Shown: one piece after another, positions 32,745 to 34,166 of the stretch | How the letters are laid out: every line of letters begins with the position of its first letter | How positions within the stretch are numbered: the stretch's first letter is position 1 | Virus record (IMG/VR): IMGVR_UViG_3300037418_000840 | Length of the DNA stretch: 64,000 bases | Reading direction: 5' to 3' (one strand) | Origin: a virus | Taxonomy: Duplodnaviria; Caudoviricetes | Made by a program: the position numbers and the translations under genes | The notes under the pieces: model-generated | Databases searched by the model: none | Told to the model about the DNA's origin: nothing | The model's input: only the letters and a program-made list of their open reading frames with translations

Positions 32745-32962
32745 ACTAGGCGTCCAGTGTCTGCCTCGGCAGGCCGGGGATTGCGCTAAGATGTGGGAGA
32801 AGGGTTGTCTCCAACGCCTAGTCTTGGGAGGGATCGCATTTACAGCGCGAGTCGTCGAGGACTCTGCCTCCCGCTTTTTCCATTACCCGAGAGTACGTGG
32901 CTGTCTCTTGAGGTTCCAACTTCAGCCATCATATGTCCTCTCGGGTGCGCCAATAGGGCACC
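32745..32962 (+). ncRNA. candidate structured RNA / 5' leader with three stem domains
   Basis: Stems 32745-53/32814-22 (9 bp), 32826-31/32867-72 enclosing two hairpins, 32885-93/32938-46 (9 bp) with nested helices; G-U pairs favour the + strand; lies in a 256-nt intergenic gap. Confidence 0.6.
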
Positions 32963-32965
32963 ATC

Positions 32966-34135
32966 ATGAGTTTCCTTTCAGACGCGGTTTCACAAGCAGA
33001 GCATCAGATCAAGGCTAACGCACTTGGTCAGGTCAATTCCTATAAGTCAGGTGTCAAAGGCGCGGTTCAAAACGCCAAGAATGTCTTCGCTTCTGGTATC
33101 TCAGGAGCAATCAACAACACGAGTAAGGCCGCAGTAGGATCAGTCCTTGGTGCAGCGACGGATCTTCTCACGGGCAACGTAAGCGGTGCCCTATCGGCTT
33201 TGGCTAACGCACCACAGAATATCCTAACGAGTGCCCTTTCTGGTCTAGGTGGTCAGGCTGCTGGCGCTTCGGCGGTGTTGTCCGCACCTGGAACTGTTGG
33301 CCAGATGAGCGGCAACGGTGGGGTCAATATGGGGAACTCCCTAGGCGGAGCTCAAGCCCGAACTGATCCGCTGCTCAGTTTCTGTTGGTACGCACAACTT
33401 CCGGTCATTACGCCCGGTACTGCTCAACAGGCAACGAATGCTGCATCTACGTCGGTCCTTGCCAATCTCGCGTCGACTACCCTGTCTGGAATTCTCGGGT
33501 CAGCAATGGGTGGTGGTATCGCGACTAGCAATGCTGCGATGTTGCCCTGGTACTACGTGGAAGAGGCCAGTCTGACCTTCCGTCAGTTCAATGCCAAATC
33601 GATCTTCCGTGAGGGGCGTGATCGTCACTACCCAGACAAGTATAGTGTGGACCCGCTCAGGCTTGCTATCTACGGAGATAGTGACAATACGGCGCTCACT
33701 TATTTGCAAGCCTGGAACAACGCGATCATCACACCGTTCAATGCTTCGTCAGCGTCGACGATGGCCGGTGGTTGGGGTCGTGCCTCAGACTATAAGCGGC
33801 CGATCTACATCTATCTGTTGGATGTGACCAAGAACGTGTTGGCCATCGTGCAGTACACAGAATGCTGGCCTACATCGGTTGCCGAATATTCACTGGACAG
33901 TGGGACCTCGACGCGGGTCGTCAATCACGTAACGTTCTCAGTAGGCGACGTGTTCGTCAATCTCATGGGTGTCAGTCCTGATGTGACGGCCAATGTGTTG
34001 TCGAATACGGCCAATAACGTCTTGACGTCGACCATAACGCAATTCGCTGGAACTGTGACCAGTTTGGGCAACAATCTGATTGATCGCGGTGTATCGGGTC
34101 TCACTGGCTTCGCCAAAGACTTCTCTCCTTTCTAA
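32966..34135 (+). CDS. tail tube-fold / baseplate tube initiator (T4 gp54/gp19-like) with G/A/S-rich extensions
   Basis: YYVEEASL...YPDKYSVDPLRLAIY...LQAW...YKRPIYIYLLD...YTECWPTSV tube-fold pattern. Confidence 0.65.
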   Translation: MSFLSDAVSQAEHQIKANALGQVNSYKSGVKGAVQNAKNVFASGISGAINNTSKAAVGSVLGAATDLLTGNVSGALSALANAPQNILTSALSGLGGQAAGASAVLSAPGTVGQMSGNGGVNMGNSLGGAQARTDPLLSFCWYAQLPVITPGTAQQATNAASTSVLANLASTTLSGILGSAMGGGIATSNAAMLPWYYVEEASLTFRQFNAKSIFREGRDRHYPDKYSVDPLRLAIYGDSDNTALTYLQAWNNAIITPFNASSASTMAGGWGRASDYKRPIYIYLLDVTKNVLAIVQYTECWPTSVAEYSLDSGTSTRVVNHVTFSVGDVFVNLMGVSPDVTANVLSNTANNVLTSTITQFAGTVTSLGNNLIDRGVSGLTGFAKDFSPF

Positions 34136-34166
34136 CAAGGGACAACCCTTCTCCCACAGGTGATAT

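Follow-up and report, generated by a model that had tools for sequence, protein, structure and literature searches.

The C4 antisense RNA of the immI operon in phages P1 and P7 is co-transcribed upstream of the ribosome binding site (RBS) that it blocks, according to the account of Citron and Schuster (1990) given in PMC8201110. A related layout is found in a 64,000-nt stretch of DNA (the window) from IMG/VR record IMGVR_UViG_3300037418_000840, an uncultured jumbo phage that is kin to Ralstonia phage phiRSL1 and Burkholderia phage BcepSauron. Here the two arms of a perfect 18-nt inverted repeat flank a gene for a tube-fold protein (gene 1), and the second arm adjoins the Shine–Dalgarno sequence (SD) of the gene that follows (gene 2). 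We propose, with moderate confidence, that the two arms pair with each other as RNA from the + strand, one acting as seed and the other as target, and that this pairing controls the translation of gene 2.

C4 is the closest analogue of this element in terms of logic. In both cases a phage regulatory RNA would precede its target within one transcription unit and be read from the same strand, with a loop that pairs at the RBS region of a downstream gene; the seed described here precedes its putative target in the same orientation, the target lying at the RBS of gene 2. The two are unrelated in sequence and in Rfam. Rfam holds a C4 family, and a scan of all Rfam families over positions 30000–37000 with E values up to 1 gave zero matches. 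The present locus also differs in that a whole 1.2-kb gene separates the RNA from its target, and in that the RNA would be ended by a terminator-like hairpin, whereas C4 RNA is excised by RNase P. Finally, the gene predicted to be regulated is a virion baseplate gene of a lytic-type jumbo phage rather than an antirepressor.

Other phage and bacterial systems are similar in part. In phage MS2 the Min Jou interaction is a long-range helix that masks the replicase start and is opened by ribosomes on the upstream cistron. The helix described here is likewise long-range, lies at the start of a downstream cistron and could be opened by ribosomes on the upstream cistron, giving translational coupling; however, the upstream partner in MS2 is inside the translated coat gene, while here it is in an untranslated leader, the target abuts the upstream stop codon, and the phage is a double-stranded DNA phage. 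RNase III stems bracket the ribosomal RNAs, and T7 transcripts contain RNase III sites. The 20-bp helix of the window resembles these stems in bracketing a complete functional unit, but in relatives the helix is 8–16 bp and the family-wide feature is a seed-like pairing beside the RBS. Lambda 6S RNA is a late leader that starts at PR' and ends at tR'. A short terminated leader of ~150–200 nt would similarly head structural genes at the present locus, with read-through needed for downstream expression, but no Q-like antiterminator or qut site was identified here, and we know of no pairing between lambda 6S RNA and a downstream RBS. In phage T4 the start regions of genes e, soc, 49 and I-TevI are sequestered in longer transcripts (reviewed in PMC3014915). 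The likeness is that an upstream RNA, present in only some transcripts, pairs with the SD and start region and lowers 30S binding; the difference is that the T4 structures are local hairpins over tens of nucleotides, whereas the partners here are 1.2–1.35 kb apart and one of them is in a separate structured leader. We would class the element among the phage regulatory RNAs that act by base pairing on a translation initiation region; it is unusual in spanning a whole cistron.

Regulatory RNAs of jumbo phages are almost unexplored, and this element is a sequence-defined and covariation-supported candidate across a clade of soil- and plant-associated jumbo phages. If the proposal is correct, a giant phage sets the expression of adjacent baseplate and tube-junction proteins post-transcriptionally, and the seed hairpin, terminator and second structured domain make up a new RNA family for the RNA catalogues, from which it is currently absent. 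The cultured member phiRSL1 carries its own compensated pair, which makes the prediction testable at the bench.

The inverted repeat

All positions are those of the whole 64-kb window, which belongs to a record of 171,762 bp (171.8 kb). The sequence TGTGGGAGAAGGGTTGTC at 32792–32809 (+) is, on direct reading, the exact reverse complement of GACAACCCTTCTCCCACA at 34141–34158 (18 nt), and as RNA the helix grows to 20 bp with the addition of 32810/34140 (U.G) and 32811/34139 (C-G). The upstream arm is intergenic and lies in the untranslated leader, within a 256-nt gap (32710–32965) and 155 nt ahead of the start of gene 1, while the downstream arm is intergenic between the stop codon at 34133–34135 and the ATG at 34167. 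An earlier note on this DNA had described the exact complement, its 20-bp extension as RNA, the intergenic position of both arms and the contact of the second arm with the SD, and the coordinates bear out all four; in the last case base 34158 is shared by the arm and the SD AGGTGA (34158–34163). The note had also assigned a competing local hairpin to each arm (GGAGA/UCUCC and AAGGG/CCCUU). These hairpins are present in minimum-energy folds, but they are weak.

The arm pair is the longest perfect inverted repeat within the window, and in a shuffle control that allowed up to three mismatches none of 100 shuffles had two matches. No further copies of the arms at two or fewer mismatches were found in the whole 171,762-bp record. 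Across the same record the target is the top helix partner of the seed, with a score of 50 versus 35 for the runner-up. The runner-up (15 bp including G.U pairs) is at window coordinate −20114 on the + strand, ~20.1 kb before the window starts; the site resembles the T-arm and acceptor 3' end of a tRNA gene (GGTTCAAATCC...CCA), and the seed probably matches it by chance. A 14-mer from the window seed gave single, scattered matches to viral contigs, which were taken as chance without closer inspection.

By our own arithmetic an 18-mer pair within 1.4 kb would arise by chance in about 1 per 700 windows of such size. The opinion of the earlier note that a chance match is very unlikely is therefore sound for one window, but across a scan of ~250,000 windows chance pairs are not negligible and the repeat by itself is not decisive evidence of significance. 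For this reason we rely on the comparative evidence, and it is the conservation among relatives that makes the repeat significant.

Conservation of the complementarity in related phages

Complementarity between seed and target is kept at this place in ~18 of the 31 non-redundant loci that bear a seed, versus none of the eight seedless loci (individual loci are cited by L number). The loci are phylogenetically related, so that the p-values given here overstate their independence. The common pair among relatives is the seed GGGAAGGGU with the target ACCCUUCCC, and in many relatives ACCCUUCCC begins at, or no more than 2 nt from, the gene 1 stop codon and ends 2–20 nt ahead of the gene 2 start; the target starts within 2 nt of the upstream stop codon in eight loci. 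When contiguous helices were ranked over the whole 4–7 kb locus, in 8 of 24 loci the top partner of the seed lay in the 75-nt region spanning the stop of gene 1 and the start of gene 2, and the same region ranked 2–4 in five further loci of the 24, against a chance expectation of ~1–2% per locus. Ranking by duplex energy (RNAduplex) gave p<0.05 in 5/24 loci (Fisher p=5e-8), but this ranking is noisy because the G-rich seed pairs loosely, and contiguous helices are therefore preferred.

The seed and target of a given lineage match each other more closely than they match those of other lineages. The summed score of each seed with its own target is 475, compared with 386 +/- 15 after permutation, and none of 20,000 permutations reached 475 (p<5e-5); without the four most divergent lineages the effect has p=0.016. 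In phiRSL1 the pair is a compensated 10-bp version, CGGAAGAGUU versus AACUCUUCCG, with the target just inside ORF207 (open reading frame 207). L045 pairs GGAAAGGG with CUCUUUCC (a pair also given as UAGGAAAGGGU/ACUCUUUCCUA) and L024 pairs AGGGUCGG with CCGACCCU. All five internal substitutions in the target are C-to-U changes, each giving a G.U pair. Helices gained more length when G.U pairs were allowed than when A.C pairs were (17 loci versus six, Wilcoxon p=0.006), a comparison that is partly biased by the G-rich seed. The earlier note had proposed to look for compensatory changes at both sites in relatives; such changes are found, together with the G.U-type changes.

In L033, where gene 1 is followed by an insertion of two small ORFs (~400 nt; L033:1223–1609), the target has remained in front of the gene 2 SD. 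The tree of gene 1 proteins implies at least three independent losses of the seed (L028 clade, BcepSauron and L021), and the target is missing each time; in BcepSauron an inserted gene parts what remains of the leader module from gene 1. In minimum-energy folds of the whole putative 1.3–1.5 kb transcript the long-range helix forms in six of nine phages, the window (1.48-kb RNA) included. As a side observation, three loci of the clade without the GGGAAGGGU seed (L028, L209 and L210) have a new hairpin 1 loop, GACAUU, that complements AAUGUC at the gene 2 start; this 6-bp match is too short to judge, and it is not seen in L214 of the same clade.

It is conceivable that each motif is maintained for a reason of its own and that their complementarity is incidental, for example if the purine-rich loop binds a protein and the pyrimidine tract is an enhancer bound by ribosomal protein S1. 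Pyrimidine tracts ahead of SDs are common, the seed persists without a local target in about six lineages, and in many loci the core is conserved rather than covarying. We nevertheless regard this explanation as quite unlikely in view of the lineage-specific compensatory changes and the matched-versus-permuted test, the joint loss of seed and target in three lineages, and the fact that, of all sites in the locus or genome, the one that pairs best with the seed is precisely at this junction.

The length of the helix varies within the family. It is 20 bp in the window, including one G.U pair, 15–16 bp in the nearest relatives and 8–11 bp in most relatives. The pair in the clade of the window is GGGAGAAGGGUUGUC/GACAACCCUUCUCCC; an inserted GA/UC and a UUGUC/GACAA extension are common to the window and its closest relatives (73–76% protein identity), and at the other end of the helix the window has UGU/ACA where its closest relatives have an extra G/C. 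The longer helices, and the presence of the helix in the minimum-energy fold of the 1.48-kb RNA of the window, would suit a stem in cis in which the leader pairs with the region past gene 1 and either RNase III cleavage or shielding of the ends yields a discrete and stable gene 1 mRNA. In L054 and L075 the best site for the seed is at the end of gene 2, so that different units can be bracketed. However, RNase III needs a longer helix than 8–11 bp, and the targets of phiRSL1, L024 and L077 are inside gene 2, where cleavage would destroy the gene 2 mRNA. We consider such a stem unlikely to be the function of the family. RNase III excision, which the earlier note had offered as a mechanism, does not hold as a general one given the short helices of most relatives; processing is possible in the 15–20 bp clade of the window, though this would not be a family-wide function.

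A perfect 18-bp inverted repeat that flanks one gene might also act at the level of DNA, either in site-specific inversion of the 1.3-kb segment or as a pair of protein-binding sites. This is extremely improbable. Gene 1 has the orientation of its neighbours in every fetched relative, changes in the arms of relatives keep G.U pairs yet break DNA identity, and the upstream arm is inside covarying RNA hairpins. Among the genes scanned over ~27.5–48.6 kb there is no invertase or integrase, the sole recombination-type match being a RuvC-like Holliday junction resolvase at 27473–28078. The low rank that the earlier note gave to inversion agrees with the gene order and orientation, which are identical at every fetched locus. 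The lineage-matched changes, the G.U-type changes and the covarying hairpins around the seed together support the view that the complementarity is selected at the level of RNA from the + strand, and not as a DNA repeat.

The leader module upstream of gene 1

The anatomy of the gap upstream of gene 1 was compared in ~40 related loci. It is a conserved non-coding region of four parts, namely a motif, hairpin 1, hairpin 2 and a second structured domain, element 2 (Table 1). A MAFFT alignment of the module was too gappy for a covariance model, and per-sequence folds with anchored pair counts were therefore used.

Table 1. Position and description of the features discussed in the text
Feature	Position	Strand	Description
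Promoter-like motif CCAATTTAATGT	32714–32725	+	5 nt past the stop of the upstream gene; family consensus CCAATTTNATAG
AATTTNAT[AGT] sites in the window	18723, 32716, 50178	+, +, −	Remainder outside the window in G000
Hairpin 1	32745–32822	+	~9-bp closing stem 32745–32753/32814–32822; seed in the 3' loop region
Upstream arm (putative seed)	32792–32811	+	18 perfect bases 32792–32809 plus U.G and C-G; family core GGGAAGGGU
Hairpin 2, terminator-like	32826–32879	+	GGGAGG/CCUCCC stem (32826–32872), internal three-way junction, GC, UUUUU 32875–32879; −20.5 kcal/mol
Element 2	32884–32947	+	Outer stem CCCGAGAG/CUCUCGGG, inner stem, conserved loop CUCUUGAGGUUC(C)AA; z −3.19; directly before gene 1
Gene 1	32966–34135	+	389-aa tube-fold protein, tail-tube-initiator-like, flanked by both arms
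Downstream arm (putative target)	34139–34158	+	Begins 4 nt past the gene 1 stop; last base is the first base of the gene 2 SD
SD and start of gene 2	SD AGGTGA 34158–34163, ATG 34167–34169	+	Read from the sequence
Gene 2	34167–35540	+	457 aa; presumed regulated target; T4_baseplate (PF12322) family by homology

Hairpin 1 encloses the seed with 6–17 base pairs in the modules of 25 of 26 relatives, and every pair type is seen at each position of the stem. The common seed in relatives is the purine-rich GUGGGAAGGGUG on the 3' side of the hairpin 1 loop, and the version in the window is enlarged. In 24 of the 26 relatives hairpin 2 has a covarying basal helix of 7–11 bp followed by a T-run, a pattern from which it would be predicted to act as a Rho-independent terminator. 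A simple promoter and terminator scan found nothing useful near the arms and missed hairpin 2 owing to its large internal junction.

The CCAATTTNATAG motif is in the same place in nearly all relatives, directly after the upstream stop codon. Its 12-mer form is unique in the window, where only the shorter AATTTNAT recurs. There are 11 sites of the form AATTTNAT[AGT], mostly AATTTGAT, in the phage record; 6/11 are intergenic, whereas intergenic DNA makes up only 12% of the genome. The phage has a sigma factor gene at 19231–20205 (phrog_17569). Rifampicin is an inhibitor of host RNA polymerase. Phage phiRSL1 is reported to have no RNA polymerase gene of its own, and rifampicin is reported to abolish its replication (PMC5468394). 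From the intergenic enrichment, the phage sigma factor and these reports on phiRSL1 we infer that the AATTTNAT motif is a promoter element and a candidate for recognition by the phage-encoded sigma factor. Alternatively, the 5' end of the RNA could be generated by RNase E processing of the 3' untranslated region of the upstream operon. A promoter-like motif followed by a seed hairpin and a terminator-like hairpin suggests the layout of a ~150-nt small RNA (sRNA) or of a terminated leader.

Element 2 has a conserved loop in relatives, CUCUUGAGGUUCAA, close to the start codon of gene 1, and this loop contains a T-loop-like UUCNAA. The element is more widely kept than the seed, being present in seedless relatives, and in BcepSauron it precedes a different, inserted gene. 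In several relatives its 5' strand has two possible partners, one copy within the loop and another farther downstream, and these alternative pairings suggest a switch or a pseudoknot. Two small ORFs that start inside the seed (32791–33018 and 32793–32969) are not regarded as genes: a start codon is not conserved there in relatives, the terminator-like hairpin lies in the same place, and the indels are not multiples of three.

Proposed mechanism

In the mechanism that we propose, the promoter-like motif past the upstream gene would start a transcript whose first ~150 nt fold into the two hairpins. Hairpin 1 would display the purine-rich seed, and hairpin 2 would terminate part of the transcripts to leave a small RNA. 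In phiRSL1 this would be a + strand RNA of ~130–150 nt from the ORF209–ORF208 intergenic region, starting a few bases past CCAATTTTAC and ending at the U-run. Copies that read through hairpin 2, or transcripts that read through from the portal operon, would form an mRNA for genes 1 and 2 in which seed and target are on one molecule. The seed would then pair with the pyrimidine-rich tract within the footprint of the initiating 30S subunit and so control the translation of gene 2. The earlier note had suggested an sRNA–target pair that tunes the translation of the next gene, and this fits the family-wide evidence of a seed in a hairpin loop, promoter-like and terminator-like flanks, and a target near the gene 2 start. 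The pairing may act in cis, in trans or both.

Because the target falls inside the usual initiation footprint, the default expectation would be repression through occlusion of the 30S subunit. The helix also abuts the stop codon of gene 1, so ribosomes terminating on gene 1 could melt it and thereby couple gene 2 to gene 1. A stronger form of this idea is a cis switch new for double-stranded DNA phages, in which the leader loop clamps the stop/start junction across the whole cistron, gene 2 is obligately coupled to gene 1, and in the 15–20 bp clade the helix also lets RNase III cut out the gene 1 cistron; taken as a whole this is a possibility that we put forward only tentatively.

The opposite sign has also to be considered. 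Pairing could activate gene 2 if the tract were a weak local anti-SD or a C-rich Rho-loading site, which the seed would sequester so that the SD is freed or premature Rho termination is prevented. Local folds of about half of the target-bearing loci show 3–6 nt of the tract paired to the SD window, the tract itself is rich in C and U and poor in G, and all the evidence for the pairing itself counts equally for activation. The local hairpins are, however, weak (−1.7 to −6 kcal/mol), and there are none in the window, L012, L013 or L015, so that we think activation rather unlikely.

Several points weigh against translational control of gene 2 by the pairing. Most relatives have a helix of only 8–11 bp, the core of which shows conservation and not covariation. 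A convincing target at the junction is missing from about six lineages that hold a seed (L020/L040, L041, L023, L213, L054/L068 and L075), and in two of these, L054 and L075, the seed pairs best with the 3' end of gene 2, through a G.U-rich helix of 12–17 bp. Since the seed persists in lineages without a junction target, it may have another or an additional role. Genes 1 and 2, if they encode two baseplate–tube junction proteins, may be needed in equal numbers, which leaves the benefit of differential control unclear. Where the pyrimidine tract pairs weakly with the nearby SD, as it does in about half of the loci with a target, activation would be predicted instead, and the sequence is compatible with either sign of regulation. 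A second perfect ACCCTTCCC target was looked for in the whole records of three relatives, where counts were at the control level once the seeds themselves were set aside. In L040, a locus without a junction target, a perfect ACCCTTCCC was observed in codons 4–7 of a 62-aa ORF directly upstream of the leader module (L040:1082–1270); it may be an alternative target or chance.

Gene content and neighbourhood

Upstream of the gene pair are the genes for the large terminase and portal and two small genes, and downstream are baseplate hub and wedge genes. Gene 1 matches phrog_45 and phrog_4542 (tail tube) and, among precomputed assignments, PF23849 Phage_TTP_2, while its homologue in BcepSauron is annotated as 'tail tube initiator'. 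Elsewhere in the genome, outside the window (G000:C1:38194–40582), a 185-aa ORF with weak similarity to gp19 comes after a sheath gene (PF04984, 38.9 bits), and the two are probably the true sheath and major-tube pair. On account of this second locus gene 1 is probably a baseplate–tube junction or tube-initiator protein rather than the major tube. The tube fold proposed for gene 1 in the earlier note is thus retained, and a role as the major tube is what the second locus speaks against.

Gene 2 matches phrog_13792. Its protein is 55% identical over 299 aa (E 2e-120) to that of a relative which scores 36.4 bits on PF12322 (cut-off 24.5), and PF12322 is also listed for gene 2 of other relatives. 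The label 'chaperone' that had been given to 34167–35540 is replaced by T4_baseplate, since its relatives' proteins, at 55% identity, are above the Pfam cut-off for that family. Sequence searches of the PDB with the gene 1 and gene 2 proteins gave no matches, and ARAGORN found no tRNA and no tmRNA in 32000–35000.

Genes resembling homing endonucleases are inserted near the gene pair in two relatives: L208:718–1386 is an I-HmuI/NUMOD-like gene on the opposite strand, upstream, and L210:4530–5141 is a NUMOD4 gene, downstream. Together with the insertion in L033, these genes suggest a traffic of homing endonucleases in the baseplate module.

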